This document shows, piece by piece, positions 157 to 29,212 of a DNA stretch of 64,000 nucleotides. Position 1 is the first letter of the stretch. Every line of letters starts with the position of its first letter. This DNA is from a virus: IMG/VR virus record IMGVR_UViG_3300042890_006166, positions 32,001-96,000 of that record. One strand, 5' to 3'. The notes under the pieces are model-generated. The model made no database searches and was not told the DNA's origin. It was given only the letters and a program-made list of their open reading frames with translations. A program made the position numbers and the translations under genes.

Positions 157-735
157 ATGAGCACACAGAAATTTAAATTCAAAGAAGTACCTACATCCGA
201 TTTCTTCAAAGATTTGACTATATATGAAGAATTTTCATGGGTGGCAAATCCTAAATCAGAAAATGTTTTTGTTTTCAGTGAAATTGAAAATTTAAAAGAC
301 GAAACCTTTTATAAGCCAAAAGATATTAAAACTGACCCAGTCTATTTGTCTATGGCTGAAATCTGGGCACAAAATTCATATTGCAGAAGAATGAAGGTAG
401 GAAGCCTGATTGTCAAAGATAAATCCATAATAGCCGATGGATATAATGGTTCACCTACTGGATTTCCTAATGAATGTGAAGATGAGGATTTTGTCACTTT
501 AAACTATGTTCTACATGCCGAAGCAAATGCAATCACCAAACTTGCCAAGAGTACACAAAGTTCCGAGGGATCAACTATGTATGTAACAGTTTCTCCTTGT
601 TTTGAATGTTCTAAGTTGATTATTCAGTCAGGGATTAAAAGAATAGTTTTTGGCAAGGTCTATAGAAAACCAGAGCCTCTGTCTTTCTTATTAGAGGCAG
701 GTATTGAAATTATAAAATTGGGAAAAAAAATCTAG
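157..735 (+). CDS. dCMP deaminase
   Basis: Zn-deaminase motifs HAEANA and PCFECSK, plus SYCRRMKVG and GYNG; about 55-aa N-terminal extension. Confidence 0.9.
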   Translation: MSTQKFKFKEVPTSDFFKDLTIYEEFSWVANPKSENVFVFSEIENLKDETFYKPKDIKTDPVYLSMAEIWAQNSYCRRMKVGSLIVKDKSIIADGYNGSPTGFPNECEDEDFVTLNYVLHAEANAITKLAKSTQSSEGSTMYVTVSPCFECSKLIIQSGIKRIVFGKVYRKPEPLSFLLEAGIEIIKLGKKI

Positions 736-5706: not shown

Positions 5707-8373
5707 ATGGATTTACTGAATAAACTCAAAACCCTAAGAAATACAACTACTTCTCCAGAAGTTAAAGCTATCTGTGAATCAAACATTCAAAAGATAGAAA
5801 AAGGAGACCCTAATATCAATTCCGATTCGATCATGGAGTCCATCCAAAATTTCGAACGTGTTGATACACCATCGCAAGATCCCTTTCAACTTATGAGAGA
5901 ACAGGAATTGACTAGATCCAAAAACGCCGCAAATAGATTGATGGAATCATGGGGTGGTGTTGGGAATGGTCTATCCAAAAACTCAGGAAGCTATGTAGAG
6001 AGTGAAAAAGAACAAACATCAAAAGTGGACTATACTAGCTTGAATGAGAATTTGTCTGCTCTTGCTTCGCAGGACAAAGGTGTAGAAGCTTTTATGAAGT
6101 CAGAAGAAGTAAATAATCTGGGTGTTTTTGAAGGAATTAATACAATTCGGAATTCTGGTATTTTCGAACATCCTTCCATCAAAATTATTTGTGAAAAATA
6201 TTATCATTTGCTGAAAAGCAAAAATATGCCAGAATTCCTGGTAGCAGAAGGATTTCTTCAAGAAATGAAAAATTTTGATTGGGATGAAAGAGTACAAGAA
6301 ATAACAGAATCATTAAGCGAAAAGCTAACGGATCTCAGACCTGAAATCGAAGTTTCTAAAGCTTTGTATACCATTTCAAGTAATGCAGGTTCTGATTTTT
6401 ATTCTCCTGTAACCGAATCCCTGAACAAGTGGCTGGTGTCTGAAAATAAATCAATATCTCTTCTAACAAAAGATATTTCAAGATGGCAATTTAATCCTAT
6501 TGTTAGAAACTTGTTGAACAATCTTTCCCTGATGGAACAAGATTCTTCCAAGCTAAATATTCCGATCCATGCTGGTAATTCTTCAGTCCGTAGAGTTTTC
6601 TCTCCTGTTCTTGTAGAAGGAGGTAAAACCATTTTCACCATTGGGTCAAATGTTTTTGAAGGATCAAGCCAAGGATTGAAGAAACTAAATCGTGGGCAGG
6701 TAGCTGTTCTCCCAAAAAATTTCATTTCAGTTTTAGAATCTTTTTATGCTCCATATGTAAAGGTCGATGAGAATGGTTTAAATGTTTTTGTTGGTAAACA
6801 CAAATTTTCTTTAATTGAAGAAGGAGAAAGCGTATCAATTCTATTCAACGGAAAATCAATGAAATTCCAAGATAAAGTGAACCTTTCAAAGGCAATTGGA
6901 TTAGAAATTTCCGGATCTTTGGGTATGAACGAAAACAAAATTGTTTATGACATTTTGAATTTGTATGAGAACTTCCTTTCGATTGTTGAACTTGATTTTG
7001 CAAAAAGAATTGAATCCAAAGTTTATGAAGGTGCTTCAGTAAACCTCATTAAATGGGAAAATAAAATATTCCTTAACAGAATTAACGAATCTATGTCAGA
7101 TAATTCTGTTTTTGAAGTTAATGGAACACAGGCAACAAACATGGTAAGAGAATTCTTGAAATATGATATTTCAGAGGGTTTAACTGAATTTTTGGATGGT
7201 GAATCTAGAATCAAATCTATCATGCTAAACGACAGAAAGAGGTTGATGGAAAATATTACAGTTCTAGAAGGACAGCTTCAAAAAGTTGAATCGCAAATGG
7301 GTTTAAATCCTTTGTTTGCAAATTCACCTGAACTTCAAAGGGCTCAGAATTTATTGGAAAGAGAACTTTCCTCTTTGCGCAAAAAGTGGTCAGCAGTGAA
7401 CACAGAGCTTCAAAAAATTGAAAATGAACCTTTGTCTTTTGAGGAAGTGTACGAGGATGATAAATTTAACGTCGGAGAATATGTTAAGGTTTTGGAATCT
7501 GGAAACACAGGTAAAATTATTTCTATTGATTCTACATCCGGTTCTTATACGGTATTGATGGACAACGGTAGGACCGGAGATTTTAAAATCGATGAAATTA
7601 TCAATCTGGACGATGCATTATCCACTGCAGGTGATGAAAATGAAGTCGAGGCAGAAACACAAGAGGAATTGAAAGAAGCTTCTCAGCAATTGGCTACAGC
7701 TCCCGGTAAATCTGCAAAGGAAAAGAAAGATGCAACTCCAGGCAACACGATGAGAAAAAATACAGAAGCTGCACCTAAAGGAAAAGACAATAACAAAGGT
7801 GGACAAAAAGATGTAGAGAATTTGAAAGATGCTAATTTAGAGGAGGCACCAGAAGGAAAAGAAACACACACCAAATACAAGGCAACTAAAGGTGCTGGGT
7901 ATAATTTGTCGGAAGACACACGTTTCAGCAAATCTGATGTTAAACTTATGAAGCTTTCAGAAACTCCTGGTTCTGAAGAAGGCGATGCAGATTATGAAGT
8001 CAAGGGAATTCGATACAAATCTAAAAACCCTCAGGTCATGAAAACAGATCCTAATTTTGCTTCTGCTCCAGGAAGTGAAAAAGGGAAAGAGCTCCACTAC
8101 AAAGTAGATGATGAGATGGGTTATAATGTGGATGAAAAAACAGAGCTCGAAAAAACAAATCAAAATTTGGCAGTTGCCCCAGGTAAATCCGAAGGAGATG
8201 CTGGATATGGGGTAAAAACTATCAAGGGTAAAGCACATAGTCCACAGGTAATGAAAACTGATCCAAATTTCGCGGTAGCTCCCTCTAAGGGCTCCGAGGG
8301 AAGGATAGGTTATAAGTCCAATCCTGAAATGGGTTACAATATCGACGAAAGCGAGGAGTCAAAAAAAAACTAA
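5707..8373 (+). CDS. Large putative prohead core/internal head protein (coiled coil, SH3/KOW-like domain, C-terminal repeats)
   Basis: Late promoter, upstream of head genes; many (L/I)xE sites; coiled coil near aa 500-575; FNVGEYVKV..GNTGKIISID...YTV SH3/KOW-like segment; APG(K/S)- and GYN-containing repeats. Confidence 0.6.
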   Translation: MDLLNKLKTLRNTTTSPEVKAICESNIQKIEKGDPNINSDSIMESIQNFERVDTPSQDPFQLMREQELTRSKNAANRLMESWGGVGNGLSKNSGSYVESEKEQTSKVDYTSLNENLSALASQDKGVEAFMKSEEVNNLGVFEGINTIRNSGIFEHPSIKIICEKYYHLLKSKNMPEFLVAEGFLQEMKNFDWDERVQEITESLSEKLTDLRPEIEVSKALYTISSNAGSDFYSPVTESLNKWLVSENKSISLLTKDISRWQFNPIVRNLLNNLSLMEQDSSKLNIPIHAGNSSVRRVFSPVLVEGGKTIFTIGSNVFEGSSQGLKKLNRGQVAVLPKNFISVLESFYAPYVKVDENGLNVFVGKHKFSLIEEGESVSILFNGKSMKFQDKVNLSKAIGLEISGSLGMNENKIVYDILNLYENFLSIVELDFAKRIESKVYEGASVNLIKWENKIFLNRINESMSDNSVFEVNGTQATNMVREFLKYDISEGLTEFLDGESRIKSIMLNDRKRLMENITVLEGQLQKVESQMGLNPLFANSPELQRAQNLLERELSSLRKKWSAVNTELQKIENEPLSFEEVYEDDKFNVGEYVKVLESGNTGKIISIDSTSGSYTVLMDNGRTGDFKIDEIINLDDALSTAGDENEVEAETQEELKEASQQLATAPGKSAKEKKDATPGNTMRKNTEAAPKGKDNNKGGQKDVENLKDANLEEAPEGKETHTKYKATKGAGYNLSEDTRFSKSDVKLMKLSETPGSEEGDADYEVKGIRYKSKNPQVMKTDPNFASAPGSEKGKELHYKVDDEMGYNVDEKTELEKTNQNLAVAPGKSEGDAGYGVKTIKGKAHSPQVMKTDPNFAVAPSKGSEGRIGYKSNPEMGYNIDESEESKKN
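7969..8349 (+). repeat. Intragenic tandem duplication of about 68 aa
   Basis: Two copies of EGDA.Y.VK....K...PQVMKTDPNFA.AP......YK...EMGYN(V/I)DE. Confidence 0.85.
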
Positions 8374-8540
8374 AAAAAATCCTCAGTAGGGTATGGGCTT
8401 TTGCACCATCTAGTCCAGATCAGGACAAAAAACCCGAACCTTTTGTAGATGATTATAAAAAGGGTATGAGTTTTGCACCATCTGGAAAATCTGAAGATAG
8501 TGAATTTACAGATGATTCGGCTGAGGAAAATAAGTTTTAA
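8364..8540 (+). other. Putative -1 frameshift site (A_AAA_AAC) and about 57-codon -1-frame extension of ORF 5707
   Basis: 0-frame reads TCA AAA AAA AAC TAA. The -1 frame stays open to TAA at 8538-8540 and encodes KKKLKKILSRVWAFAPSSPDQDKKPEPFVDDYKKGMSFAPSGKSEDSEFTDDSAEENKF, containing the same FAP(S/G)(G)KSE-type motif as the upstream repeats. Confidence 0.7.
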
Positions 8541-8542
8541 AT

Positions 8543-8570
8543 GAAACTAACCTCGAGGATAAAACTAAGA
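8543..8570 (+). promoter_or_regulatory. Putative middle (ECF-type) promoter GAAAC-N18-TAAGA upstream of the gp55-like gene
   Basis: Same architecture as the other GAAAC sites. Confidence 0.4.
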
Positions 8571-8599
8571 TTCTAAGTTAGCAATTTTTTTAACATTTA

Positions 8600-8959
8600 A
8601 TGACAAAAGTTTACGTTACAAACTCCAGTTTAATGGCTGCTATTCTTGAATCTAAGAAAAAAGGCCAACTGACCAACGAGACAATCGAAATGTTCAATTT
8701 AATGATTGCTGGTATTTCCAAGAAAATGGCTTACAAAGATCCAGATGATAAAGCTGATTGTATGGCTTTTGCAATGGAAGATCTTTGTAAGTATTGGAAT
8801 AGGTTCGATCCAACCAAATCAAATAATCCATTTGCTTATTACACACAAATAGCAAAAAATGGATTTGCAAAAGGGTGGAAAAAAATTCACCCCCCTAAAT
8901 CCCCTAAAACCATTCCATTTTCTTATATTACAGGAGAAGACAATTCCTATAATATTTAG
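8600..8959 (+). CDS. gp55: T4 gp55-like late-transcription sigma factor (short)
   Basis: YVTNSSL start and C..YWNRFDPTKSNNPFAYYTQIA match the gp55 family signature (NFDPEKS.NPFAYFTQI). Confidence 0.8.
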   Translation: MTKVYVTNSSLMAAILESKKKGQLTNETIEMFNLMIAGISKKMAYKDPDDKADCMAFAMEDLCKYWNRFDPTKSNNPFAYYTQIAKNGFAKGWKKIHPPKSPKTIPFSYITGEDNSYNI

Positions 8960-9445
8960 ATGACTGATATTAAGAAAATAAAGCCCAACGGTAGCTACAA
9001 ATCTGGTTTGTATGTACCGGTCAATCCAGACAAATACGTTGGAGATATACACAACATAATTTGTAGATCAAGCTGGGAATTCAGATTTTGCAAATATTGT
9101 GATAATAACGATAAAATTTTAAAGTGGAGTTCAGAACCAGCCGCTATACCATATTATAATCCTTTGGACAAAAAAGATCACAAGTACAATGTTGATTTTT
9201 ATTTGAAAGCCCTTCAAGACGATGGTAATGAACAGGAATGGTTGGTAGAGGTGAAACCTGAAAAGCAACACGAAAAGCCAGTATATGAAGGAACTTACAC
9301 CGTAGATAAACTGAAATCATACAATCACAAAATGCAAATTTGGATTACAAACCAAGCCAAATTCAAAGCTGCTAAACATTGGGCTGAAAGTAGAGGAATG
9401 AAATTTGGGGTTGTAAACGAGAAATTCTTATTTCAAAGTAAATGA
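8960..9445 (+). CDS. gp4: T4 gp4-like head completion nuclease (TnsA-like PD-(D/E)XK)
   Basis: RSSWE..FCKYCD.N..ILKWSSE..AIPY...D.K.H.Y.VDF...LVEVKP. Confidence 0.88.
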   Translation: MTDIKKIKPNGSYKSGLYVPVNPDKYVGDIHNIICRSSWEFRFCKYCDNNDKILKWSSEPAAIPYYNPLDKKDHKYNVDFYLKALQDDGNEQEWLVEVKPEKQHEKPVYEGTYTVDKLKSYNHKMQIWITNQAKFKAAKHWAESRGMKFGVVNEKFLFQSK

Positions 9446-10044
9446 TCGACTTTCAGGATCAGGCCAGAAAATTAAGAAGTGAATTTCCTTCTTTAACTAA
9501 ACTTAATTCATTGATAAACGAGGAATTTTTGGAAAAATATGGGCCAAGCTCGAATCACTCTGGAGAGAAATTCACTTCTTTTAAAAGCGGAAAAATTTAT
9601 TTTGCGTTACACACAACAAAAACAAATCCAGGAGAAAAAAATCCCTTCGTAAATAGATATCCGTGCTTTCTTTTTTTATCAGAAGAAAGAATTGGTACAG
9701 GGATGATTTGCAAAGTAATGGATCTTACAATTATTCCAAATGATAAACGGGCAGAAATTTTAACTAGACTAACTTCTACTTTTTCAGAAATACTTCAAGA
9801 AAATATGAGAAATATTTTGGGATCTCAAATGCCTTTGAATCTTAAGGGAGAAAATTTACAAAAAATATTCAAAGGAACTGGATACGAGTTTGCAATTTTT
9901 GGGTTTCACAAGGAAAATTTACGTGACGTGAAAATTGTAGATTATGAAGACTGGGTAAAAATTCCTTATTTCAATAACGCCTCAATAGAGGGTCTCTCTT
10001 TGGATAAGATATATAGGGAATATAAATCGAAAATAAAAACTTGA
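9442..10044 (+). CDS. Divergent gp2-like DNA end-protector protein
   Basis: Position next to gp4; GKIYF...K......PFVNRYP.FL...MDLTIIP...R..IL pattern resembles the gp2 family. Confidence 0.5.
   Translation: MIDFQDQARKLRSEFPSLTKLNSLINEEFLEKYGPSSNHSGEKFTSFKSGKIYFALHTTKTNPGEKNPFVNRYPCFLFLSEERIGTGMICKVMDLTIIPNDKRAEILTRLTSTFSEILQENMRNILGSQMPLNLKGENLQKIFKGTGYEFAIFGFHKENLRDVKIVDYEDWVKIPYFNNASIEGLSLDKIYREYKSKIKT
10008..10015 (+). promoter_or_regulatory. Putative late promoter GATATATA for the portal genes
   Basis: Inside the 3' end of the upstream ORF, 59 nt before the portal ATG. Confidence 0.6.
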
Positions 10045-10074: not shown

Positions 10075-11700
10075 ATGGCAGGATTTAACGAGAATCCAAA
10101 TACCAATCCCATATTCCAAAGAATAAGGGAATCCATCAAAAATCTGAGTAATTTCGGATTGCGGTATGGTGACATGGTGGTTAAAAATTCCCAAGCCATT
10201 GGTGCTACTGAAGCAGAATTTTTAAAGAAGGGACCTATAGAAGATGAAACAACTTTTTTCTCCTTAGGAAGACAAGATACGACAACCAGACAATACATTT
10301 CCTATTTTGATAAAGACTATGCAGGAAAAAGAGATTACTTGAGAAAATTTTCTTTAAACCCGGAAATTGAATATATTCTGGATACTGTTTGCGACGAGTC
10401 TATTTCTTATGATGGTTATAACTTTTTCGCTTATCCAGCATTCCTTAATATAACCGGGCTTAAACAAGATGTAATAGATAAAATTGATTCAACGTACAAA
10501 AAATTGTACGACATGTTTGGATTCAATGATGATATTTCTGCCTGGCAGTACTTCAGGCAGCTTTTGGTTGATGGTTTTGTAGCTTTCGAAATTGTGTATG
10601 ATGACAAAGGAAAAAATATTATCGGATTTAAAGAATTGGATGCTACCACGTTAATGCCCTCTGTAGAAAAGCAGAAAGATGGAACATTCTTGAATGTTTG
10701 GTATCAATATCCTAAGGACGAAAGAAAAAGAAGAATGCTGTATGATTCTCAGATCATTTATCTTTCTTACGCAAAGGGTAATTCTGTTTCAAGGGTAAGT
10801 TATACTGAAAGGTTAATTCGTCCATATAATGTTCTGAGGATCATAGAATACACTCGTGTTATTTGGTCTGTGATGAATGCATCTTTCCGTCTTAAAATGA
10901 CAGTTCCGGTAGGCTCCAGATCACAACAAAAGGCTATGCAAACACTCGGAGAGTTAATGTCTATCTATAAAGAAGATATTCAATTCAACGACGAAAGCGG
11001 TGAACTTTCAGTAAACGGACAACCAAAAATTCAGTTCTACAAAAATTATCTTATGCCCAAAGGTGCTTTGGGTACTCCTAATATTGAACCTTTAAATACT
11101 GCTGGACCAAATTTGAATGATCCAGCTCCTTTGGCTTACTTTTTTGACAAGTTGGTTCAAGAATCTAAAATACCATTTTCTAGATTTCAAGGGCCTGATG
11201 GCGGATCAACAGGTAAATATGCCAATGCAGCAGAAGGATTAGACAAAGAAGAAATTAGATTTTCGAAGTTCATTATGAGATTGAGATCTGTTTTTCAAGA
11301 TATTCTCATAAAACCTCTATGGATTCAATTGTGTCGTGATTTTCCCCAATTGGAGAAGGATTATATGTTCAGAAGTCAGCTTGGTTTAACTTTTGTTTCA
11401 GATAATCCGTTTCGTGTTAACCAGGAGATAGAAACGATGAGCAAAAGAAAAGAATCCATCGACTCTATGTACCAATTAGTGGATGAAGAAGGTCAACCTT
11501 TCTTTTCTTTAGGATTTTTGATTGAAAATTTTCTTGGAATGACCGAGGATGATATCAAGGCTAATGAAGAAGCGAAAGAGAAGGCAAAAAAGAAAAAAGA
11601 AAAAAATTCACCTGAGGGAGAAGGGGGAGAAGAAGGCGGTGCTCCTCCTGAAGGGCCAGAACCAGGAGCAGCCCCGCCTGAAACAGAAACACCAACATAA
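10075..11700 (+). CDS. gp20: Portal protein, copy A (T4 gp20-like)
   Basis: EIEYILDTVCDESI, WQYFRQLLVDG..AFEIV, FYKNY.MP, YFFDKL.QESKIP.SR, EEIRFSKFI.RLRS.F motifs of gp20 portals. Confidence 0.88.
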   Translation: MAGFNENPNTNPIFQRIRESIKNLSNFGLRYGDMVVKNSQAIGATEAEFLKKGPIEDETTFFSLGRQDTTTRQYISYFDKDYAGKRDYLRKFSLNPEIEYILDTVCDESISYDGYNFFAYPAFLNITGLKQDVIDKIDSTYKKLYDMFGFNDDISAWQYFRQLLVDGFVAFEIVYDDKGKNIIGFKELDATTLMPSVEKQKDGTFLNVWYQYPKDERKRRMLYDSQIIYLSYAKGNSVSRVSYTERLIRPYNVLRIIEYTRVIWSVMNASFRLKMTVPVGSRSQQKAMQTLGELMSIYKEDIQFNDESGELSVNGQPKIQFYKNYLMPKGALGTPNIEPLNTAGPNLNDPAPLAYFFDKLVQESKIPFSRFQGPDGGSTGKYANAAEGLDKEEIRFSKFIMRLRSVFQDILIKPLWIQLCRDFPQLEKDYMFRSQLGLTFVSDNPFRVNQEIETMSKRKESIDSMYQLVDEEGQPFFSLGFLIENFLGMTEDDIKANEEAKEKAKKKKEKNSPEGEGGEEGGAPPEGPEPGAAPPETETPT

Positions 11701-11702
11701 TT

Positions 11703-13310
11703 ATGGCAGGATTTAACGACGATAACAGCCAACAGCGTTCTTTCTTAGGAAATTTGTATCGAAATCTGTCCAGAATTGGAAGGTTTGGAATGCAGTATGA
11801 GGATATGGTCATCAGAAATTCGCAGGCTATAGGAGCAACTGAATCTACTTTTTTCAATAATCAAGGAACAGGATTTACTGAGAATGATGCTTTCTTTTGG
11901 ACATTGGGTTATCAAGACACCAGAGTAAGAAAATACATCGCTTATTTCGACAAGGACTATTTAGGCAAAAGAGAGTTTCTACGAAAATTTGCATTAAATG
12001 GAGAAATTGATTTTATCCTAGATACCCTTTCGGACGATGCCATAAATTATGACGATAAAAATTTCTTTGGATATCCTTCGTTATTGAATGTAGATCTAAA
12101 GCCCGAGGTGCGAGCTAAGGTGGAAGAAAATTTCAGAACTTTATACATGCTTTTTGGTTTTCAACAAAGCATTTTGGCCTGGCAATATTTCCGTCAATTT
12201 TTGATTGATGGGTTTTTGGCTTTTGAAATTGTTTACTCTACAGACGGCAAGAAAATTGTTGGATTTAAAGAATTAGATGCTACTTCTTTACAACCAGCCA
12301 CAGAACAACAACCTAACAAAGAATTTCAACAAATTTGGATTCAATATCCAGGTGATCCTAGAATGACCCGAAAATTAAAGGCAGAGCAAGTAATTTATCT
12401 TTCCTATGCCAAGGGTAACTCAGTTTCTAGAGTAAGTTATACGGAAAGACTTATTAGATCGTATAACATTTTAAGGGTGATGGAGAACACAAGAGTTATT
12501 TGGAATGTGATGAACGCTTCATACCGTTTGAAATTTGTTATTCCAGTTGGAACACAATCAGGACAAAAAGCAATGCAAACACTGGGACAATTAATGTCTC
12601 AGTATAAAGAAGAAATTCAAATCAACGATACTTCCGGGGAATTAACCGTAAATGGAGCTCCCAAAGTTCAGTTTTACAAAAATTATTTATTCCCTGAAAA
12701 AGACGGAGAATCTCCGGACATCAACACATTAAATCCTGCTGGACCCGATTTCAACGTCATGGAAAACGTTGTGTACTTTTACAACAAGCTGAAGTTAGAC
12801 TCCAAAATTCCATATGCTAGATTTGCTTCGAGGAGTGGTCCTGTGACTTACCAGATTTCTATCGATCAGTTAGAAAGAGATGAAATTAGATATGAAAAAT
12901 TCGTTACCCGTTTGAGGTCTGTTTTTCAAGAACTTTTGGTAAAACCTTTATACATACAAACCTGTTTGGATTTTCCGGCTTTGTCTGAAGACCGGTCTTT
13001 CAAAGTTAATTTGGGGTTGGATTTTGTGAAAGAAAATGTTTTTGAGCAATTGATTGTACTTTCTAATTATACAAAAAGAACAGCTTTTATTACCGCCTTG
13101 GGTGATATGAAACAGAAGATTGGGGAAGAAGAAGTTCCTTATTTCGATAAGGAATGGCTTATCAAAAGATGGCTAGGTCTGAGCATGGACGAATATCGTT
13201 CCAATCAAAAGTACAAAGATGATGAAAAAAAACAGGCAGACAAGGATAAAAAGGACAAGGGAGAAGAAGGAGGAGGTGGAGAAGGGGGAGCACCGGATTT
13301 TACGCTTTAA
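11703..13310 (+). CDS. gp20: Portal protein, copy B (T4 gp20-like)
   Basis: Full-length paralog of copy A with the same gp20 motifs (EIDFILDTLSDDAI, YFYNKLKLDSKIP, DEIRYEKFV.RLRS.F). Confidence 0.88.
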   Translation: MAGFNDDNSQQRSFLGNLYRNLSRIGRFGMQYEDMVIRNSQAIGATESTFFNNQGTGFTENDAFFWTLGYQDTRVRKYIAYFDKDYLGKREFLRKFALNGEIDFILDTLSDDAINYDDKNFFGYPSLLNVDLKPEVRAKVEENFRTLYMLFGFQQSILAWQYFRQFLIDGFLAFEIVYSTDGKKIVGFKELDATSLQPATEQQPNKEFQQIWIQYPGDPRMTRKLKAEQVIYLSYAKGNSVSRVSYTERLIRSYNILRVMENTRVIWNVMNASYRLKFVIPVGTQSGQKAMQTLGQLMSQYKEEIQINDTSGELTVNGAPKVQFYKNYLFPEKDGESPDINTLNPAGPDFNVMENVVYFYNKLKLDSKIPYARFASRSGPVTYQISIDQLERDEIRYEKFVTRLRSVFQELLVKPLYIQTCLDFPALSEDRSFKVNLGLDFVKENVFEQLIVLSNYTKRTAFITALGDMKQKIGEEEVPYFDKEWLIKRWLGLSMDEYRSNQKYKDDEKKQADKDKKDKGEEGGGGEGGAPDFTL

Positions 13311-13320
13311 ATTTAACTGA

Positions 13321-14319
13321 ATGAATTTTAGGGAATTATTTTTATCTAAAAAAATATTGGTTGTTGGTGATTCTATTTTGGACCACTATGTTTATGGAAA
13401 GGTTCATAGAATATCCCCGGAAGCACCAGTTCCAGTTGTTCTGAAAAGCAAAGAGCAATTTTTTCTAGGTGGAGCAGCAAATGTCGCTCAGAATATTACA
13501 GCCTTCGGAGCCAAGTGCACTTTATTGACTTTGGTAGGAGATGACGAAGATGGAAAAATGTTGTTGAAAAAATGTAACGAAAAAAATATAGATCCGATTT
13601 TCGTCCACGAGCAAGATAGACCAACAACGAAAAAAACCAGGATTATAGGAAATAAACATCAAATTGTCAGAATCGACGTTGAACAAACACATGATTTATC
13701 ATATGATTCTAGTTTGAGAATCATTGAGGAATTTGAAAAACAAGTTCAATTGCATGACGGTGTGATTTTTCAAGATTACGGAAAGGGATTATTTACAGAT
13801 TTCATATTAACTTCTTTGATTGAAATATCAAAGAAATACTCGAAAGAAATTTTGGTAGATCCTAAGGAACCTGATCTTGGTAGATATCAAGGAACAGATC
13901 TTATCAAGCCAAATTTGAATGAGTTCAAGGCTATGGTGAATATTAAACCTGAACAAGATTTAGAAATTAGTCAGATCGTAAATTATGCTCAACTGGTGAT
14001 GGAAGAATTCGACTATAAATATTTCCTAATTACTTTATCAGAAAAAGGAATGTTGTTGGTGGGGAGACACTTTTCTCATCATGTGCCTGGTATAAATGTA
14101 GATGTTTCAGATGTTTCTGGAGCGGGGGACACGGTTAGTTCAGTTTTCAGCTTAGGGTTTTTTTCTTGCACATACGATTTTGTATCCAAGTCGAATTTGA
14201 TCCGAATAGCAGAACTGGCTAATCTGGCAGGATCTTTAGTGTGTAGACATTCTGGAGCAGTCCCAGTTGACCCTGGAGAATTAGAAGAATTATTCGAAAA
14301 AAATCCAATTTTTTCCTGA
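13321..14319 (+). CDS. hldE: D-glycero-beta-D-manno-heptose-7-phosphate kinase (HldE/RfaE domain I, PfkB family)
   Basis: VVGDSILDHY..G.V.RISPEAPVPV, LGGAANVA.N, QDYGKG, IKPN..E, DVSGAGDTV; no adenylyltransferase domain. Confidence 0.92.
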   Translation: MNFRELFLSKKILVVGDSILDHYVYGKVHRISPEAPVPVVLKSKEQFFLGGAANVAQNITAFGAKCTLLTLVGDDEDGKMLLKKCNEKNIDPIFVHEQDRPTTKKTRIIGNKHQIVRIDVEQTHDLSYDSSLRIIEEFEKQVQLHDGVIFQDYGKGLFTDFILTSLIEISKKYSKEILVDPKEPDLGRYQGTDLIKPNLNEFKAMVNIKPEQDLEISQIVNYAQLVMEEFDYKYFLITLSEKGMLLVGRHFSHHVPGINVDVSDVSGAGDTVSSVFSLGFFSCTYDFVSKSNLIRIAELANLAGSLVCRHSGAVPVDPGELEELFEKNPIFS

Positions 14320-14360
14320 TTTAATTTTTTTTTTGCAGGGTTTAGTTCTACATTTACATC

Positions 14361-15698
14361 ATGATAAACGAACTAAAAATCCTATCGACACTCGAATCTT
14401 TAACTGGAAACGGGTCACAAAAAGAGAAGCAAAGATTGCTCTCAGAGAACCTTACCGAGGTGATGTCATACCTTTTGGACGTGTGTTTCAATCCCTTTGT
14501 AACGACCAAGTTACACAAGCTTGATTTACACCCAACCCCTATCGGGGAATTCCCTGGTTTCGATGTTTTCAAGTCCCTAATGGAAAGTTTAAAATCAGCT
14601 CCGGCTGCCAACGACAACCTTAGAGGTCAAGCCACATCACTCATCAATTCCCGTATTTCGGAGGATCCAATCGAAGACAAACAACTTCGGGAAATTCTAA
14701 TGAAAATCCTCACCAAAAGAATGAATATAGGTATAGGAGCCAAATTGGTCAACAAAGCAATTGGTAGAGAACTTATACCAGATCCCTCTGTGATGCTAGC
14801 TTGTGACGATCAGAAAGAAATTGCCAGCTGGGGAAAGATCTACTGTGAAGAAAAATACGACGGTGTTAGAGTAATTGCTGTAGGGGACAGAGAAAAAGGA
14901 TTCCAATTTTACACCCGAGCCTTCAACGAGTTGGATAAAAGTAGACTTTATTACATAGAGCGAGATTTAATCAATATTCTCCACAATGCTAACATCGTAG
15001 GAGAAGTATTTTTTGATGGTGAACTAACCGACATCAACAGAAAGTCAGTGTCAGGAAAGGTAACTCAAATTCTGAAGGGCACAGCACCACAAGATATTGA
15101 CAAGGAATTTATATTCAATGTGTTCGATTTAGAAAAGGCTTCAGTACTAAAAATTGGACACGGTACTACGCCTTTCATACAAAGAAGAAAAGAATTGGAA
15201 TTCTTAACTGCCTTTTTGTCTCTGAATTCTCAGGTTAAACTTGCCAGACAGTGGGTGGTAGATTCCATGGAAGAAACCCAAAATATTTATGGACTAATTA
15301 TTTCCTTGGGTGGAGAGGGTGTTATTCTTAAACCAGGTCACCACGTATATGAGTGTAAACGTAGTAAAAGTTGGGTCAAATTGAAGCAAGTTCAAGATTG
15401 TGATCTGGAAATCACCGGATGGTATCCCGGAGAAGGTAAAAGGGAAGGATTCATCGGGGGTTTCATTTGTACCGATGCCTCTAGAACTTTGGATGTGAAG
15501 ATAGGATCTGGATTTACTGATGTCGATTTGAAAACTCTCAGTTCCAATCCAGATCAATGGATTGGCCGGGTGGCAGCTGTTCAATTCAACGAGCCTATTA
15601 CAGACAAATTCGGCAATCGGAGCCTGTTTCTTCCCCGTTTTATCGAAGTTAGAACCGATAAAAATCAGGCTGACGACATGACTTCTTTTTTCAAGTAA
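14361..15698 (+). CDS. ATP-dependent DNA ligase
   Basis: EEKYDGVR adenylation motif, FDGEL, FNVFD, EGVILK, W.KLK and an OB domain with IGSGF. Confidence 0.95.
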   Translation: MINELKILSTLESLTGNGSQKEKQRLLSENLTEVMSYLLDVCFNPFVTTKLHKLDLHPTPIGEFPGFDVFKSLMESLKSAPAANDNLRGQATSLINSRISEDPIEDKQLREILMKILTKRMNIGIGAKLVNKAIGRELIPDPSVMLACDDQKEIASWGKIYCEEKYDGVRVIAVGDREKGFQFYTRAFNELDKSRLYYIERDLINILHNANIVGEVFFDGELTDINRKSVSGKVTQILKGTAPQDIDKEFIFNVFDLEKASVLKIGHGTTPFIQRRKELEFLTAFLSLNSQVKLARQWVVDSMEETQNIYGLIISLGGEGVILKPGHHVYECKRSKSWVKLKQVQDCDLEITGWYPGEGKREGFIGGFICTDASRTLDVKIGSGFTDVDLKTLSSNPDQWIGRVAAVQFNEPITDKFGNRSLFLPRFIEVRTDKNQADDMTSFFK

Positions 15699-18752: not shown

Positions 18753-19187
18753 ATGGAATTGTTCGATGTCGTTAAAGCTATTTTTGGACCTTCCAAAATC
18801 TGGGAATCTGTCGGAAAGGCAGATAAGGTCAGAAATTTCTTTATGATTAACCGTTTTATGGCCATTCAATTTCCTAACCAAGCCCACGAATTTAACAACA
18901 CAAAGATTGTTCCTGAACAGGTTTTGAACTGGTGGCACTCTGTCCTTTCACTTAAGTTTGGTAAAGCACCAAAGTGGATATACACCACAACTTCTAAAAA
19001 GGACCAAAAAAAATCTGACCAAAAGTCACAAAATTTTCAGGAAGTAGAAGATTTCATAAGATACCGATATGAACTCAGTAAAAGAGAGCTTCAAGAATTG
19101 AAACAATTTTTTCCTACTGAATATCATGATTGGATGAAATCACTTTCCCAGCAGATGGGGAAGGAAAATCAGAAAAAGGATATATAA
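18753..19187 (+). CDS. Putative gp62-like clamp loader subunit
   Basis: FMINRF...AHEFN.......W....K..KWI pattern resembles gp62; close to gp44. Confidence 0.5.
   Translation: MELFDVVKAIFGPSKIWESVGKADKVRNFFMINRFMAIQFPNQAHEFNNTKIVPEQVLNWWHSVLSLKFGKAPKWIYTTTSKKDQKKSDQKSQNFQEVEDFIRYRYELSKRELQELKQFFPTEYHDWMKSLSQQMGKENQKKDI
19179..19186 (+). promoter_or_regulatory. Putative late promoter GATATATA overlapping a stop codon
   Basis: GAT ATA TAA: the motif forms the last two codons and stop of the upstream ORF. Confidence 0.6.
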
Positions 19188-19210: not shown

Positions 19211-19747
19211 ATGGAGAAAGGTATTCAAAAAATTGTCGACAAGCTAGTTCAAAGTTTGGACTGGGATTCTATCCTTTTGATTCACCAGGCATTTAAGCAT
19301 GGAACAGGTCAGGGGAGCGAGGTTATCCCGGGTTTGAAAAGAAAAAATTACGACCAAAATTTAGGAATTAAAGACCTAAAACACGAGCTCAAAACTATTT
19401 TGAAGTATGTGGTAGAAAACGACTATCAGTCTTTCACCTATGGTAATTGGATTGTTACTTGGTACAATCAACAGTGGAACGATGAAACTGTTATTGAAAC
19501 CTTAAGTCAGGAAGACGAAGAATTTGAATTGGAAATAGAAATGCCTAACACTAAGCTAGAGGTAATTTATGCTCCTCAAAGGATTTGTATAACAATGAAT
19601 ACTGGTGAAAGTTCAGGTCAATCAGCACCCTCTGATATAAACACACTCAAGATCATGTTGGAAAATGCTCTTTCAGAGGAAAACTACGAGATGGCACAAA
19701 AGATTCAAGACATTCTTAAAATGTCCCAAAAACCAGAGGAGATTTAA
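19211..19747 (+). CDS. Hypothetical protein with C-terminal UVR (UvrB/UvrC) motif
   Basis: LKIMLENALSEENYEMAQKIQDILK at the C-terminus. Confidence 0.7.
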   Translation: MEKGIQKIVDKLVQSLDWDSILLIHQAFKHGTGQGSEVIPGLKRKNYDQNLGIKDLKHELKTILKYVVENDYQSFTYGNWIVTWYNQQWNDETVIETLSQEDEEFELEIEMPNTKLEVIYAPQRICITMNTGESSGQSAPSDINTLKIMLENALSEENYEMAQKIQDILKMSQKPEEI

Positions 19748-19755
19748 GATACATA
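19748..19755 (+). promoter_or_regulatory. Late promoter variant GATACATA
   Basis: One mismatch to GATATATA, 16 nt before the TTG start. Confidence 0.45.
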
Positions 19756-19771
19756 TAAAAAAAGTTGTCTC

Positions 19772-20254
19772 TTGAAGTACATTCTCACCCTAAATGAATT
19801 TTTTGACACTGGAGTTTTTGGCGACACCTATGGATACGGCGGAGCCAACGGTATTTTCAAGGTTCAATATAAGCCATACAAGGATCTTTCTGTTAGTGTA
19901 GGACCAGACCCAAGAGTTCCTAGAAACATTCCTGGTTCTAAATTTCAAGTGGGTGATATTGTCATAGGAGTACCCATAAATGGTGATAAGAAGGTGGCGG
20001 GCATGGTTGTTAAAAATGTATTGGCCCCAGATCACAAATCATATCGTTTTTTTGTTCAGATTCACACCAAAGGTAAAAAGGATCAAAAAGTTCTAGAACT
20101 AAAGCCTGACACGGTCGAGTTCGTAGACATGGGAGACAAAGGTCACCGTCAAGTTGTATCCCAGTATAAATTCAACGATATGCCAGGTGATGCCTACAAC
20201 TCTAAAACTGTTTACACCAATCCTGGTTTAGGAATTGAAGCAGTCGGAAGTTGA
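19772..20254 (+). CDS. Putative internal head protein with SH3/KOW-like domain (TTG start)
   Basis: N-terminal MKYILTLNEFF propeptide-like motif; FQVGDIVIG...GMVV SH3-like segment. Confidence 0.6.
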   Translation: MKYILTLNEFFDTGVFGDTYGYGGANGIFKVQYKPYKDLSVSVGPDPRVPRNIPGSKFQVGDIVIGVPINGDKKVAGMVVKNVLAPDHKSYRFFVQIHTKGKKDQKVLELKPDTVEFVDMGDKGHRQVVSQYKFNDMPGDAYNSKTVYTNPGLGIEAVGS

Positions 20255-25425: not shown

Positions 25426-27459
25426 ATGATGATGGAAGATTTACCTTTTATGAATGAGAATCTGGTGTTTATCTTGGAGAAGCAAGGTCATCACGTTGAG
25501 GCTTCTAAAGACTCAGATGGCTACACTTTAAAAGGTATTGCAGCACAGTTCGGGAAAGAAAACAATAACAACAGAATTTACGAAGAAAGTGAATATCTCC
25601 CACATTTGGATTACCTGAATGATAAGATCAAACAAAAGAGATTGGTTGGAGAGTTGGATCATCCTGAAAAATTTGATGTCTCTTTGAAGAATATCTCTCA
25701 TATCATCGAGGATCTCCAATACGACAAAAGCGGAAGAGTACTTAAAATCACGGTAAAATTGCTTGACACTCCTGCTGGCCAAATAGCCAAGAAATTGGTT
25801 GATGCAGGCATTCCACTTTCTATTTCTTCTCGTGCAGCTGGAAATGTTGGCCCAGATAAGAAAGTTCAAATTAAAAAAATCTTCACTTATGATCTTGTAG
25901 CAGATCCAGGTTTTCAGGATGCTCAATTAGAAAGAGTATACGAAAGCGCTGGTTTTACATTCTCTGATTTTTCGAATCGGAACAAAAATTCAGTTGTTCA
26001 CGATCTAAAATGTCTCAACGAGTCTTTAGGTATCAAAAATGATTCGGGAGTGATGATATATAAGGTTGACGATAATGAAGAATTTAAAAAAATACTCAAA
26101 TCAGACAAAAATAAAAATAACATCATGGAGTCCAGAAAAGAATATGTAACGAGTGAAGAACTCAACAATTATTCCATTTTCTTAAAGAAAAAAATGGATG
26201 AGCTCGAGTCTCAAATCCGCGAGGCTAAGACCACTCAGAATTTGGTAGAAAGCTCAGATTCTTATACAAAACAACTCGAGGAAAGAGTAGATCGTCTAGA
26301 AAAATACTGCGAGTATTTGGCAGAAAATCTGGAAGCATCTATCAAGTATGGCGAATACGTTGCAGAGAATTTGGACAACTCCATTACTTACAGCAAATAT
26401 CTCGCAGAGAATCTTGACAAGAATATCTCCTATTCTAAATACCTCGCAGAGAACGTTGACAAGTCAATTTTGTATTCCGAGTATGTGGCAGAGAACGTGG
26501 ATAAAGGTATTAACTACTCTAAATATCTCGCAGAAAAATTGGATGACACCATTCAATATTCCGAATATCTTGCAGAGAATGTGGATCACACTATTGCCTA
26601 CTCAGAATATCTGGCAGAAAATGTAGACAGAAATATTTCTTATTCTGAATATCTCGCAGAGAAGTTAGATAGAAACATTTCTTATGCTGAATATCTCGCG
26701 GAGAATTTGGACAAAGGTATTGCCTACTCAGAATATCTTGGTGAAAACCTTGATAAAGGTATTGCCTACTCAGAATATATTGGCGAAAAATTAGAACAAG
26801 GAATTTCTTATTCCGAATATTTGGCAGAAAATGTAAACAGAACAATTTCTTATTCTGAATACATAGCCGAAAAATTAAATGGCACGATTTCGTACACCGA
26901 GTCTTTGTCTGAAAGCGTAGGATATCAACCAGTGGTTGAAAAAGACGCACGGAGACAGGCAGAAGTCGCCTCAAGAACTGAATTAGCGGAGTCTGGGTTT
27001 GCAGGAGATTATACAAATCTTGGCAAACAAATTGATTTCCTAATTGAGTCGGTCCAAACCCAAAAGACCGAAAATGATCAAAGAAAGGCTGAAAGCAAAT
27101 GGCAGCCTACTGCTCAAACACAAAAAGCAGAACAAGTTCTCAACGAGAATGCAGACGCCAAACCAACATCTGGCCACAAGTTCATCGACGAGATGCCAAC
27201 AGAGTATGCTCCGATTTGGGAGTCATTGAGCGAAGGACATAAGCAATCAATTATTGCCCAGTCTATTTTCCACAATCTCAATACACCTTATCAGATCAGA
27301 AATTTCTGGTCAACCCGTCAATTTGGACCTAAGCCTCTGGCTATGCAAAAATTGCAAGAGAACGAAAACATATCAGAGTCTTCAAACAGTCAGGCAACCG
27401 CTGCTTACAGCAACGATTATCTGAGCTGGGTGGCTAAGTCACTAGAAGGCAAATTCTAA
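25426..27459 (+). CDS. gp21: Prohead protease (T4 gp21-like) fused to a repeat-rich scaffold/core domain
   Basis: N.NNRIY, GELDHP, SH.I, TP.GQIA..L, ISSRAAG (catalytic Ser), YDLVADPGF; followed by a 14-aa-repeat coiled coil; directly upstream of the MCP. Confidence 0.9.
   Translation: MMMEDLPFMNENLVFILEKQGHHVEASKDSDGYTLKGIAAQFGKENNNNRIYEESEYLPHLDYLNDKIKQKRLVGELDHPEKFDVSLKNISHIIEDLQYDKSGRVLKITVKLLDTPAGQIAKKLVDAGIPLSISSRAAGNVGPDKKVQIKKIFTYDLVADPGFQDAQLERVYESAGFTFSDFSNRNKNSVVHDLKCLNESLGIKNDSGVMIYKVDDNEEFKKILKSDKNKNNIMESRKEYVTSEELNNYSIFLKKKMDELESQIREAKTTQNLVESSDSYTKQLEERVDRLEKYCEYLAENLEASIKYGEYVAENLDNSITYSKYLAENLDKNISYSKYLAENVDKSILYSEYVAENVDKGINYSKYLAEKLDDTIQYSEYLAENVDHTIAYSEYLAENVDRNISYSEYLAEKLDRNISYAEYLAENLDKGIAYSEYLGENLDKGIAYSEYIGEKLEQGISYSEYLAENVNRTISYSEYIAEKLNGTISYTESLSESVGYQPVVEKDARRQAEVASRTELAESGFAGDYTNLGKQIDFLIESVQTQKTENDQRKAESKWQPTAQTQKAEQVLNENADAKPTSGHKFIDEMPTEYAPIWESLSEGHKQSIIAQSIFHNLNTPYQIRNFWSTRQFGPKPLAMQKLQENENISESSNSQATAAYSNDYLSWVAKSLEGKF
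26055..26062 (+). promoter_or_regulatory. Internal late promoter GATATATA inside the protease gene
   Basis: Exact motif at the protease/scaffold junction, 62 nt before the in-frame ATG at 26125. Confidence 0.6.
26125..27459 (+). CDS. Nested in-frame scaffold/prohead core protein (gp22-like role)
   Basis: In-frame ATG (MESRKEY) preceded by AAAAATAAAAATAACATC, the same A-rich leader style as other starts, with an upstream late promoter. Confidence 0.55.
   Translation: MESRKEYVTSEELNNYSIFLKKKMDELESQIREAKTTQNLVESSDSYTKQLEERVDRLEKYCEYLAENLEASIKYGEYVAENLDNSITYSKYLAENLDKNISYSKYLAENVDKSILYSEYVAENVDKGINYSKYLAEKLDDTIQYSEYLAENVDHTIAYSEYLAENVDRNISYSEYLAEKLDRNISYAEYLAENLDKGIAYSEYLGENLDKGIAYSEYIGEKLEQGISYSEYLAENVNRTISYSEYIAEKLNGTISYTESLSESVGYQPVVEKDARRQAEVASRTELAESGFAGDYTNLGKQIDFLIESVQTQKTENDQRKAESKWQPTAQTQKAEQVLNENADAKPTSGHKFIDEMPTEYAPIWESLSEGHKQSIIAQSIFHNLNTPYQIRNFWSTRQFGPKPLAMQKLQENENISESSNSQATAAYSNDYLSWVAKSLEGKF
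26311..26898 (+). repeat. 14 x 42-bp coding tandem repeat ((E/K)YLAENLDKxIxYS)
   Basis: 14 consecutive 14-aa units seen in the translation, synonymously diverged at DNA level. Confidence 0.95.
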
Positions 27460-27484: not shown

Positions 27485-29212
27485 ATGAAACTAATTAACG
27501 AAGCTGAGATCTTCGATACCTGGTCGCCTATCATCGAACAGAAAGCTGGTATCACTGATCCTTCTAAAAAAGCGTGGTTGTCTAAATACTGCCACTATCA
27601 CTCCCTCAACGAATCTGCCGGTGCATACCAGTCGTTGAACGTTGTCAACGGCATGGGTCCCGTTGCACCTCCTGTCTTTCCTGGAGCAACACAAGCTACT
27701 TCGGTTGGTGGTTACGGTCCTAACCAAGGATTCTACAGCCAATCTTGGCAAGGTTCTGGCGATAAGTTTCCTTCACTTCTTCCTTTGGCTATTCAGGTAG
27801 CTGCGAAGACTGTAGGTTTCGATATCGTTCCAGTTATTCCTATGTCAGGTCCTTCTGGCGTTTTGTCTTACCTCGACTACGTGTATGCCGGTGGTAAACT
27901 CAGTCCTCAATCCGTAGGTACTACCGCAGCCGATGCTTTGGCCGCTGCTCCTGCAATGATCAAATTGCAAATCACCACCCAGACAGACATGTCTTTACTA
28001 GTAGTAGGACCAGGCACACCAGGTACTACGTATTACATTACTAACGCTACATCAGCAGGTGCTTATATCTCTGCTAGGTTTGTTGGTCTTTCTAGGATTG
28101 ACGGCTTCCCGATCTTCGAAATTATCGGAATTACAGAAGGCGAATCTGTTGCTTCCGTTGTTAATGGGGGTGCAACTAAAGTTGGTACTTCAATCAACGG
28201 AGCTGAAGTTGGTACTACCACATCTACTGCTTCTTTGGTTAAAGCTTTGGAAGATCATATCCAAGGTTTCTCTGGAGCTGGTTTCTATGACGACCAGAAC
28301 TGGCAGGGTCCTTTCGTAGATGGTACGAGGACTTACAATCCAATGCTTAGAGGCGTAGGTGAAGAAAACTACTACAACTTGATGGGTCTTTCGACCTTCA
28401 CGAAGTTCGTAGAAGCTGACACCTTCCAGGTAGCTGCTTCCGTCACTACGGAGCAAATCCAGGACCTTAACAAGCAGTTCGGTATCGACGTCATTTCTAT
28501 GATCGAGAACGCACTGGTTAATGAGGTTTCTCAGGCGATTAACAAGCACATTCTGGCCAGAGCTTTTGCTCTCGGTTGGTCTAACTGTTATGACTTCAAC
28601 ACAGTTGAAGGTCAAAACCTGAACCTGAATTTGGTTCTTGGTGGACTTGCTGGTTCTTACACCATTCCTTCCTATGTTGGAAAAACAGACCAGCCTTTGA
28701 CTATGACTGGTACCGCAGGTCCTGCAAATGGTGGATATGAAAACTTGTCAACTCTACAGAGAAGACTTTTCTCCCGTATCCTTGCAGCCGCTAACGTGGT
28801 AGCAAACAGAGGTAGAAGGGGTCCTGCTAACTTCATCGTCACCAATGCAAACTTGGCTTCGGCGATGCAAGATATCAGCCAATTCACCTTTGCTCCTTTC
28901 ACCAATACCTTGACTCAGAACAACGGTACTTTGTACCCAGTTGGATCTTTGGCCGGTATGACCGTGTATGTGGATCAAAACATGAGGTACAACGACACCA
29001 GAATCCTCGTTGGAAGAAAAGGTGGTGATGATGAGCCAGGTCTCAAATTCATGCCTTACATGATGGCAGAATCGATTCAGACAATCTCTGAAGGTACAAT
29101 GTCACCTAAAATCGCAGTTAAGTCTCGTTACTCTCTAGTAGAAGCTGGTTTCCACCCAGAAACCATGTATCTCTGCTTCAATGTTAACCTGCCTACTGGC
29201 GGTCTGGTTTAA
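27485..29212 (+). CDS. gp23: Major capsid protein (T4 gp23-like)
   Basis: VIPMSGPSG.L.YLDY.Y, VTTEQIQDL..QFGID, E..Q.INK.I, RRG.ANF.V, G.L.G..VY.D, FMPY, KSRY; N-terminal LNE-type cleavage sites; strong terminator follows. Confidence 0.93.
   Translation: MKLINEAEIFDTWSPIIEQKAGITDPSKKAWLSKYCHYHSLNESAGAYQSLNVVNGMGPVAPPVFPGATQATSVGGYGPNQGFYSQSWQGSGDKFPSLLPLAIQVAAKTVGFDIVPVIPMSGPSGVLSYLDYVYAGGKLSPQSVGTTAADALAAAPAMIKLQITTQTDMSLLVVGPGTPGTTYYITNATSAGAYISARFVGLSRIDGFPIFEIIGITEGESVASVVNGGATKVGTSINGAEVGTTTSTASLVKALEDHIQGFSGAGFYDDQNWQGPFVDGTRTYNPMLRGVGEENYYNLMGLSTFTKFVEADTFQVAASVTTEQIQDLNKQFGIDVISMIENALVNEVSQAINKHILARAFALGWSNCYDFNTVEGQNLNLNLVLGGLAGSYTIPSYVGKTDQPLTMTGTAGPANGGYENLSTLQRRLFSRILAAANVVANRGRRGPANFIVTNANLASAMQDISQFTFAPFTNTLTQNNGTLYPVGSLAGMTVYVDQNMRYNDTRILVGRKGGDDEPGLKFMPYMMAESIQTISEGTMSPKIAVKSRYSLVEAGFHPETMYLCFNVNLPTGGLV

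Follow-up and report, generated by a model that had tools for sequence, protein, structure and literature searches.

A 64,000-nucleotide stretch of DNA from an uncultured, giant phage of fresh water (positions 32,001 to 96,000 of the IMG/VR virus record IMGVR_UViG_3300042890_006166; hereafter the window) carries two intact, directly adjacent genes of the T4 gp20 portal family, which we call A and B. Both genes are retained throughout a clade of phages that is abundant in lakes, and they have diverged from each other symmetrically. Two diverged and equally constrained copies suggest that the capsid's DNA gateway is a ring of two subunit kinds, and we propose with moderate confidence that A and B co-assemble into one mixed portal ring, most simply with six copies of each subunit (A6B6). 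A stricter version, in which the ring would be an obligate, strictly alternating A6B6 assembly and the first portal of a tailed virus to be built from two genes, is put forward more tentatively.

Two conserved members of the T4 portal family

The open reading frames (ORFs) of A and B, 541 and 535 amino acids long, are 2 nucleotides apart (TAA-TT-ATG), and their products are 52% identical, with 71% positives, over 506 amino acids (BLASTP). Against the Pfam profile PF07230 (Portal_T4), for which the curated cut-off is 22.9 bits, A scores 207.5 bits (E 4e-61, model positions 7-431 of 433) and B 199.8 bits (E 8.5e-59, model positions 9-430 of 433), and both match phrog_213, annotated as 'portal protein' (E 2e-58 for A and 6.5e-57 for B). 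By profile, predicted fold and context, A and B are members of the gp20 family. No other portal match occurs in the 112,745-bp record containing the window (CheckV completeness 41%), which therefore holds two full-length genes in place of the single portal gene per genome of a canonical homododecamer.

A first-pass annotation, made from the sequence without database searches, had described two full-length gp20-like genes with common N-termini, a protein block preserved in spite of synonymous differences, and distinct tails, and each of these descriptions is borne out. Both proteins start with MAGFN and share an internal NSQAIGATE; the two proteins share the 21-residue block YLSYAKGNSVSRVSYTERLIR without any change, but it is encoded with differences at 13 of 63 nucleotides, spread over 11 codons and synonymous in every case; and the tail of A is rich in Pro, Glu and Gly, while that of B consists of Lys, Asp, Glu and Gly followed by FTL. 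Third codon positions are near saturation between the two genes, and their longest common exact nucleotide run is 17 nucleotides, so that recent gene conversion between A and B can be dismissed. The clean clades and the absence of distance outliers described below likewise speak against gene conversion.

The arrangement extends far beyond this record. In two scans, A followed by B was found in every related contig with enough flank, amounting to about 100 IMG/VR loci from dozens of metagenomes, and among these contigs there was no case in which either copy had been lost. Orthologs at these loci are 67-97% identical, and the identity of A to B is constant at 48-55%. The set on which retention was assessed comprises 46 distinct A/B pairs, a 99%-complete genome of 270,629 bp (G001) and a deep lineage (P0001, below); G001 and a further genome of 230 kb (G002) have exactly two portal genes each. 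At least 17 sequencing runs from lakes or other fresh water, listed in 20 rows from 16 studies, contain a 4-kb stretch in exact form; the samples from which the window itself derives may be among them. B alone forms more than 120 clusters at 90% identity, the members of which are labelled just 'hypothetical protein' in the database and come in some cases from '[bacterium]' records; no cultured relative was found, and megablast returned no match to the portal locus among GenBank phages.

The first-pass annotation had also allowed for a duplication private to this assembly or a misassembly of two strains. The probability of such an artefact is negligible: the pair is clade-wide, a merger of strains is excluded because the proteins have diverged by 48% and the A-B order is invariant, and the independence of some 100 contigs, the tree, the multiple sequencing runs and the near-saturated third positions all refute it.

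In a maximum-likelihood tree of 48 distinct A sequences, 47 distinct B sequences and six outgroup portals, the separate conserved clades that the first-pass annotation had envisaged are recovered, each paralog being monophyletic with a support of 100 in the Shimodaira-Hasegawa-like approximate likelihood ratio test (SH-aLRT). The single-copy portals of the huge phages LR756500-LR756504 fall outside the joint A+B clade, which has a support of 99, and the stem branches of the two paralog clades are similar in length (0.49 and 0.57). When further representatives from a full HMMER scan were added, the P0002/P0003 lineage was placed as sister to A+B. The contig of P0002 reads sigma, gp4, gp2, one portal and clamp loader, that of P0003 shows one portal gene, at which it terminates, and P0005, P0006 and P0008 each have a single-copy portal. 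Candidate second portals in these relatives were rejected: LR756501 and LR756503 offer just a 101-residue, 22-bit fragment, and the gene that follows the P0008 portal at a distance of 9 nucleotides does not encode a portal. P0001, a deep A-type that is 51% identical to A, is followed after 10 nucleotides by a second portal gene with B-type signatures, cut by the contig end, and the pair must therefore predate the split of P0001. The A/B pair arose by one old duplication and is confined to this clade.

Estimates of the ratio of nonsynonymous to synonymous divergence (dN/dS), obtained by the Nei-Gojobori method from ortholog pairs with unsaturated dS, are 0.014-0.033 for A and 0.014-0.036 for B. 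The earlier suggestion of purifying selection on both genes is thus upheld, with no sign of relaxed selection on one copy, and these values place the two copies under equally strong constraint. Moreover, when protein distances are taken pairwise across 46 distinct genomes, those of A and those of B co-vary at equal rates (r = 0.967, slope 1.004) and without outliers, which indicates that neither copy has been replaced or converted. At paralog-fixed sites the outgroup state is kept by A at 21 positions and by B at 20, with 9 unclear, and this symmetric divergence does not fit one working and one drifting or neofunctionalised copy.

The same measurements bear on the idea that one copy is non-structural, acting as an assembly factor (a membrane initiator or chaperone, the role of T4 gp40) or as a decoy for Avs4-type sensors. 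Portal proteins trigger some defence sensors, and no gp40-like chaperone was noticed in the window. However, an accessory protein or decoy would be expected to evolve asymmetrically and relax in parts, whereas the divergence observed here is symmetric and the constraint is equal over the whole length, including clip, stem and crown; in addition, both genes lie within the late head-gene block. We consider a non-structural role for either copy very improbable.

Predicted folds and complementary differences

AlphaFold2 monomer models, computed from an 86-sequence alignment, reached a predicted local distance difference test score (pLDDT) of 77.5 and a predicted template-modelling score (pTM) of 0.72 for A, and of 76.0 and 0.69 for B, with an identical succession of helices and strands in the two. 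The top Foldseek matches of both models are T4 gp20 chains (9mkb, 6uzc, 9lu7, 9lu6 and 3ja7; E 4e-19 for A and 7e-20 for B, probability 1.00), followed by other phage portals, with template-modelling scores of 0.50-0.58 when normalised to the query and 0.52-0.71 when normalised to the target. Clip, stem, wing, crown and tunnel loop, the elements of the portal fold, can be assigned in both predicted models. Their limits (Table 1) were mapped by HMMER alignment to 3JA7 together with the domain limits of the published T4 structure, in which the tunnel loop spans residues 374-398 (PMC4493910). In T4, the tunnel loops of adjacent subunits touch and help to set the 12-mer, and the channel and tunnel loops control DNA retention (PMC4493910).

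Fixed differences between the paralogs, defined by a state held at 95% or more within each of them, occupy 48 columns and are densest in the elements that line the DNA channel. The channel loop with helix alpha7 is the hot spot, with fixed differences at 8 of its 22 sites and an identity of 0.89 within A and 0.91 within B as against 0.38 between them, and alpha5 follows with 4 of 25 sites. All four alpha5 changes are derived on the A lineage, and those of the channel loop and alpha7 are derived on the B lineage in four cases and on the A lineage in two or three. If alpha5 packs against the alpha7 of the neighbouring subunit, such changes would represent compensation at an A-B interface, although this is only a lead. 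The tunnel loops are likewise paralog-specific and conserved inside each paralog, that of B in the window being 2 residues shorter than that of A.

The states of individual residues were counted in 48 sequences of A, 47 of B and 59 single-copy representatives, and the two paralogs were found to depart from the single-copy pattern in complementary ways. Single-copy portals tend towards D-L-x-D in the channel loop (D in 43, L in 47 and D in 31 of the 59); every A has N-L-x-D (48/48) and every B has D-F-x-V (47/47). A position in the inner clip loop that is K or R in 34 of the 59 is G in 48/48 A and K in 47/47 B, and a clip-tip column, which aligns to T4 M292 and adjoins the R295/K296 tip, is K or R in 22 of the 59, R or K in 48/48 A and Q in 47/47 B. 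At the C-terminus, Phi-T-L is present in 47/47 B as against 1/48 A, and the one A sequence that has it belongs to the basal lineage L033. FTL is also found at the end of P0001, the deep A-type, and the last residue is hydrophobic in 35 of the 59 single-copy relatives. Since these A-types carry the motif, the hydrophobic tip is ancestral, having first been kept by both copies and later lost on A, and a variable Pro/Ala/Glu stretch takes its place in the tail of crown-group A. Many single-copy portals (P0002-P0032, LR756502 and LR756504) have a long acidic, Gly-rich or Pro-rich disordered linker with a hydrophobic end (for example FEF, FDF, FGF, FAL or FGL), and this tip looks like a docking tip inside the head.

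The full set of ancestral residues is present in neither crown-group paralog alone and is complete in A and B together: of the two Asp residues in the channel loop, B retains the first and A the second, and in addition B has the inner-clip lysine and the Phi-T-L tip, A the basic residue at the tip of the clip. In T4, the inner clip loop mutant D340A-K342A still assembles heads and still binds gp17, and DNA packaging is blocked (PMC4493910).

A proposed mixed portal ring and its alternatives

Co-expressed paralogs of a homo-oligomer usually co-assemble unless their interface diverges. In the scheme that we propose, one duplication in the ancestor of a freshwater jumbo-phage clade would have produced two genes for essential virion portal subunits, expressed from one late transcript, and their products would join in a single mixed dodecamer at the sole portal vertex, with an alternating A6B6 ring as the simplest order. 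The copies would have split between them features that the ancestral single subunit carried twelve-fold. Of the channel-loop Asp residues, the first would have stayed with B and the second with A; B would also have kept the C-terminal acidic linker with Phi-T-L and a basic inner clip residue at the entrance of the channel, and A the basic residue of the clip tip, and the tunnel loop and stem-helix residues would have become fixed separately in each copy. The chemistry of the ring would then be six-fold, not twelve-fold, in the DNA channel and at the face on which terminase and neck dock, and six internal tails instead of twelve would project from it. In the stricter, obligately alternating version, channel loops, tunnel loops, the docking tips for terminase and neck, and the internal C-terminal docking tails would each exist in two forms that take turns around the ring, or six times and not twelve. 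Such a partition of features would mean that neither copy could be lost. Co-transcription, co-assembly and the 6:6 order are presumed in this scheme, and the functional roles are transferred by analogy from T4 gp20.

The arrangement of the locus is consistent with joint expression. The spacer between the stop codon of A and the start codon of B measures 2-23 nucleotides in 98/98 related loci; at one locus, L025, A (6001-7608) and B (7621-9222) share a reading frame, and read-through would give a single chain of about 1070 residues. The octamer GATATATA, found upstream of A (Table 1), occurs 15 times in the window (3338-56604), always on the plus strand, against 1.75 copies expected from shuffles. 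Its sites, for example 5675, 10008, 25402, 26055 and 51936, lie mostly just upstream of structural genes, and from this placement we regard it as a candidate late-promoter element. Following the copy at 10008 the next one is at 19179, which leaves B without a copy of its own. We infer co-expression of A and B solely from the short spacers and the single upstream promoter-like motif; no RNA run was listed with the exact stretch, and three possible RNA runs hold only 0.07-0.11 of its words. Both paralogs are thus retained in all members of the clade, equally constrained and putatively co-expressed, as would be expected of the subunits of a hetero-oligomeric ring.

This arrangement also bears on the possibility of alternative portals, whereby each particle would receive either A12 or B12 and two virion types would exist as packaging, ejection or head-size variants. 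Such variants would agree with the observation that A and B differ most in the channel and tunnel loops, the DNA-retention controls of T4, but the locus offers no separate regulation, with uniformly short spacers and no promoter-like motif before B. Furthermore, retention without exception and identical rates would be hard to maintain for a bet-hedging variant, and crown-group A is without ancestral residues that T4 needs for packaging. Taken together, these observations make alternative portals improbable.

The full portal fold and equal constraint of both copies could also reflect two separate homododecamers of different roles in each virion or prohead, namely a canonical vertex portal and a second ring. 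This second ring might, for example, be stacked on top of the crown within the head, where it would lengthen the channel or serve as a platform for core nucleation, or it might be located elsewhere. Paralog-specific channel loops, tunnel loops and C-terminal tips are expected for different jobs, and T4 has unexplained internal density above the crown (PMC4493910). Nonetheless, the clip domain, including alpha6 after the tip (QKAMQTLG.LMS), is highly similar in A and B; the T4 clip binds terminase and neck, and a ring that never faces those partners should diverge there. Additionally, the loss of ancestral residues is complementary and not one-sided, co-expressed subunits with similar interfaces would need to avoid mixing, and the genome has no paralogous partner set other than the tail tube. 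We therefore regard separate rings, the main rival of the mixed ring, as unlikely.

The first-pass annotation had named both a heteromeric ring and a second specialised vertex as possible uses of the pair. The heteromeric ring has become more plausible because of the probable co-transcription, the symmetric divergence and the complementary retention of ancestral residues, whereas nothing was found in favour of a second specialised vertex; both copies keep the clip region that in T4 binds terminase and neck.

Several observations weigh against the mixed ring. The alignment of these portals to T4 around the inner clip loop is approximate and uncertain, and the complementary residue pattern is also compatible with two separate rings of different jobs. 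The A-types of L033 and P0001 keep Phi-T-L, so the asymmetry of the tails post-dates the duplication and cannot have been what first preserved both copies. Lastly, a search for longer proteins, which was a weak one, yielded no natural A-B fusion. The one candidate fusion, the 1059-residue P0148, was rejected as a single portal with an intein; it is a distant gp20-family portal in which the intein, with an HNH-like endonuclease region (PF14890), follows approximately residue 350, near the clip/stem boundary.

Genomic setting and comparison with known systems

Table 1. Features of the portal locus, with residue numbers of the respective protein and positions in the window.
Feature	Residues	Position	Strand	Remarks
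T4 gp4-like gene, TnsA-like nuclease		8960-9445	+	phrog_218, E 7e-46; PF08722
200-residue gene at the gp2 position of relatives		9442-10044	+	assigned by position only
Candidate late-promoter octamer GATATATA		10008-10015	+	60 nucleotides upstream of the A start codon
Portal paralog A, T4 gp20 family		10075-11700	+	intact ORF, 541 amino acids
21-residue block YLSYAKGNSVSRVSYTERLIR in A		10759-10821	+	protein identical to the B block
A stem helix alpha5	~245-269			
A clip	270-342			
A channel loop and stem helix alpha7	343-364	11101-11166	+	T4 gp20 ~353-374; motif G-P-N-L-N-D-P
A tunnel loop	365-385	11167-11229	+	RFQGPDGGS.G.Y.N.AEGLDKEEIRF; conserved within A; low pLDDT
A crown	~441-511			
A disordered tail	after 511			
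Spacer TT between A stop TAA and B start ATG		11701-11702	+	2 nucleotides
Portal paralog B, T4 gp20 family		11703-13310	+	intact ORF, 535 amino acids
21-residue block YLSYAKGNSVSRVSYTERLIR in B		12396-12458	+	protein identical to the A block
B channel loop and alpha7	346-367	12738-12803	+	motif G-P-D-F-N-V-M
B tunnel loop	368-386	12804-12860	+	RFA.R.GTP-ANYQISIDQLERDEIR; conserved within B
B C-terminal F-T-L tip		13299-13307	+	follows a disordered Lys/Asp/Glu/Gly linker

The portal pair sits in a block of head-morphogenesis genes, with the gp4-like gene upstream and protease and capsid genes downstream. The head-completion genes upstream of A (8960-10044) are part of a conserved synteny, and a late-sigma-like gene (phrog_234) is located at 8600. 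At the position of the 200-residue gene, the relatives L123, L124 and L125 have PF26869 (Phage_T4_gp2); the window's own protein had no match in Pfam or PHROG. Downstream of the pair, a gp21-type prohead protease (PF03420) is encoded at 25426, and the gene at 27485 is a capsid gene of gp23 type (PF07068). The protease gene (25426-27459) is a single 677-residue ORF in which the protease domain (PF03420/PF20034, residues ~17-167) is joined to approximately 500 further residues. Between portal B and the clamp loader ATPase lie genes for a sugar kinase of the PfkB family (PF00294) and for an ATP-dependent DNA ligase (13321-15698); in the single-portal sister lineage (L124) the clamp loader directly follows the portal.

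A second tandem pair of similar genes, tail-tube-like and encoding 184 and 193 residues, is found 2.8-3.9 kb before the start of the window (G000:C1:18804-19355 and 19375-19953; loci L126 and L130-L133), with matches to phrog_32623 and phrog_45. Its members are 54-57% identical (54% in this record). In the 270-kb relative it is, besides the portals, the sole pair of full-length paralogs with an identity of more than 50%, and the record has only three paralog pairs in all. The tail-tube pair is present in 3/3 two-portal genomes, including G001 and G002, and the gene is single in the one-portal LR756500 and LR756501. Two ring-forming virion genes appear to have been duplicated in the same lineage, in a small sample of three genomes as against two, and an obligately alternating portal, if it exists, may be linked with this parallel duplication of the tail-tube gene. 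The third paralog pair of the record, beyond the window's end (G000:C1:103450-104904 and 104923-106518; L127), encodes proteins of 485 and 532 residues that are 34% identical, with weak tail-fibre matches at their N-termini.

Among the machines of tailed phages and herpesviruses the portal is the most highly conserved, and to our knowledge every one that has been solved consists of twelve identical subunits. The gp20 family itself is known, and the departure from every described portal is the two-gene state. No report of a duplicated, paralogous or heteromeric portal in a tailed phage was found in the full-text literature, a search that did not extend to most subscription journals, and a comparative study of jumbo phages mentions just one portal ortholog (PMC7824862).

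A clade-wide two-gene portal maintained by selection, if true, would be a natural experiment showing which of the twelve-fold features (channel loops, the valve of tunnel loops, the docking tips for terminase and neck, and the internal tails) need all twelve copies, and it would inform both the symmetry mismatches of the virion (12 to 5 to 6) and the evolution of heteromeric from homomeric rings. The portal-neck complexes of T4 have been refined with C6 symmetry (PDB 9LU6 and 9LU7; PMC12929587), with the 12-to-6 transition just below the portal; that a two-subunit portal would shift this transition into the portal itself is a conjecture. Were A and B instead to form separate rings, a second portal-like assembly in a virion would be likewise undescribed. 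With more than 120 B clusters the clade is abundant in lakes, which puts material within reach for metaproteomics or for co-expression in a heterologous host.

Among characterized systems, T4 gp20 (PF07230; PDB 3JA7, 6UZC, 9MKB and 9LU6/9LU7) shares with A and B the family profile, the predicted order of clip, stem, wing and crown, and the logic of the neighbourhood, in which the portal is preceded by a gp4-like gene and a gene at the gp2 position and followed by genes for a protease of gp21 type and a capsid protein of gp23 type. It differs in forming a homododecamer of one gene product, whereas here two genes are conserved as a pair; its identity to A and B in structural alignments is just 17-20%; and A and B carry long disordered acidic tails, of which that of B ends in Phi-T-L. 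Closer relatives are the single-copy portals of huge phages (LR756500-LR756504, Lak) and of P0002, P0003, P0005, P0006 and P0008, with 35-47% identity over the full length, the MAGF start, the synteny of sigma, gp4, gp2 and portal, and in many cases a terminal linker, acidic or rich in Gly, that finishes in a hydrophobic tip. Unlike the pair described here, these genomes have one portal gene (the P0003 contig ending at the portal), and the full channel-loop D-L-x-D and, mostly, the inner-clip K/R are combined on one subunit.

The T4 major capsid protein gp23 and its vertex paralog gp24 offer a further parallel, in that a structural gene was duplicated and both copies were kept by positional specialisation, although gp24 occupies different positions of the lattice and does not alternate with gp23 within one ring. 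Hetero-oligomeric rings that arose from duplicated homomers, as proposed here for the portal, are found in the eukaryotic proteasome, CCT and the V-ATPase ring.

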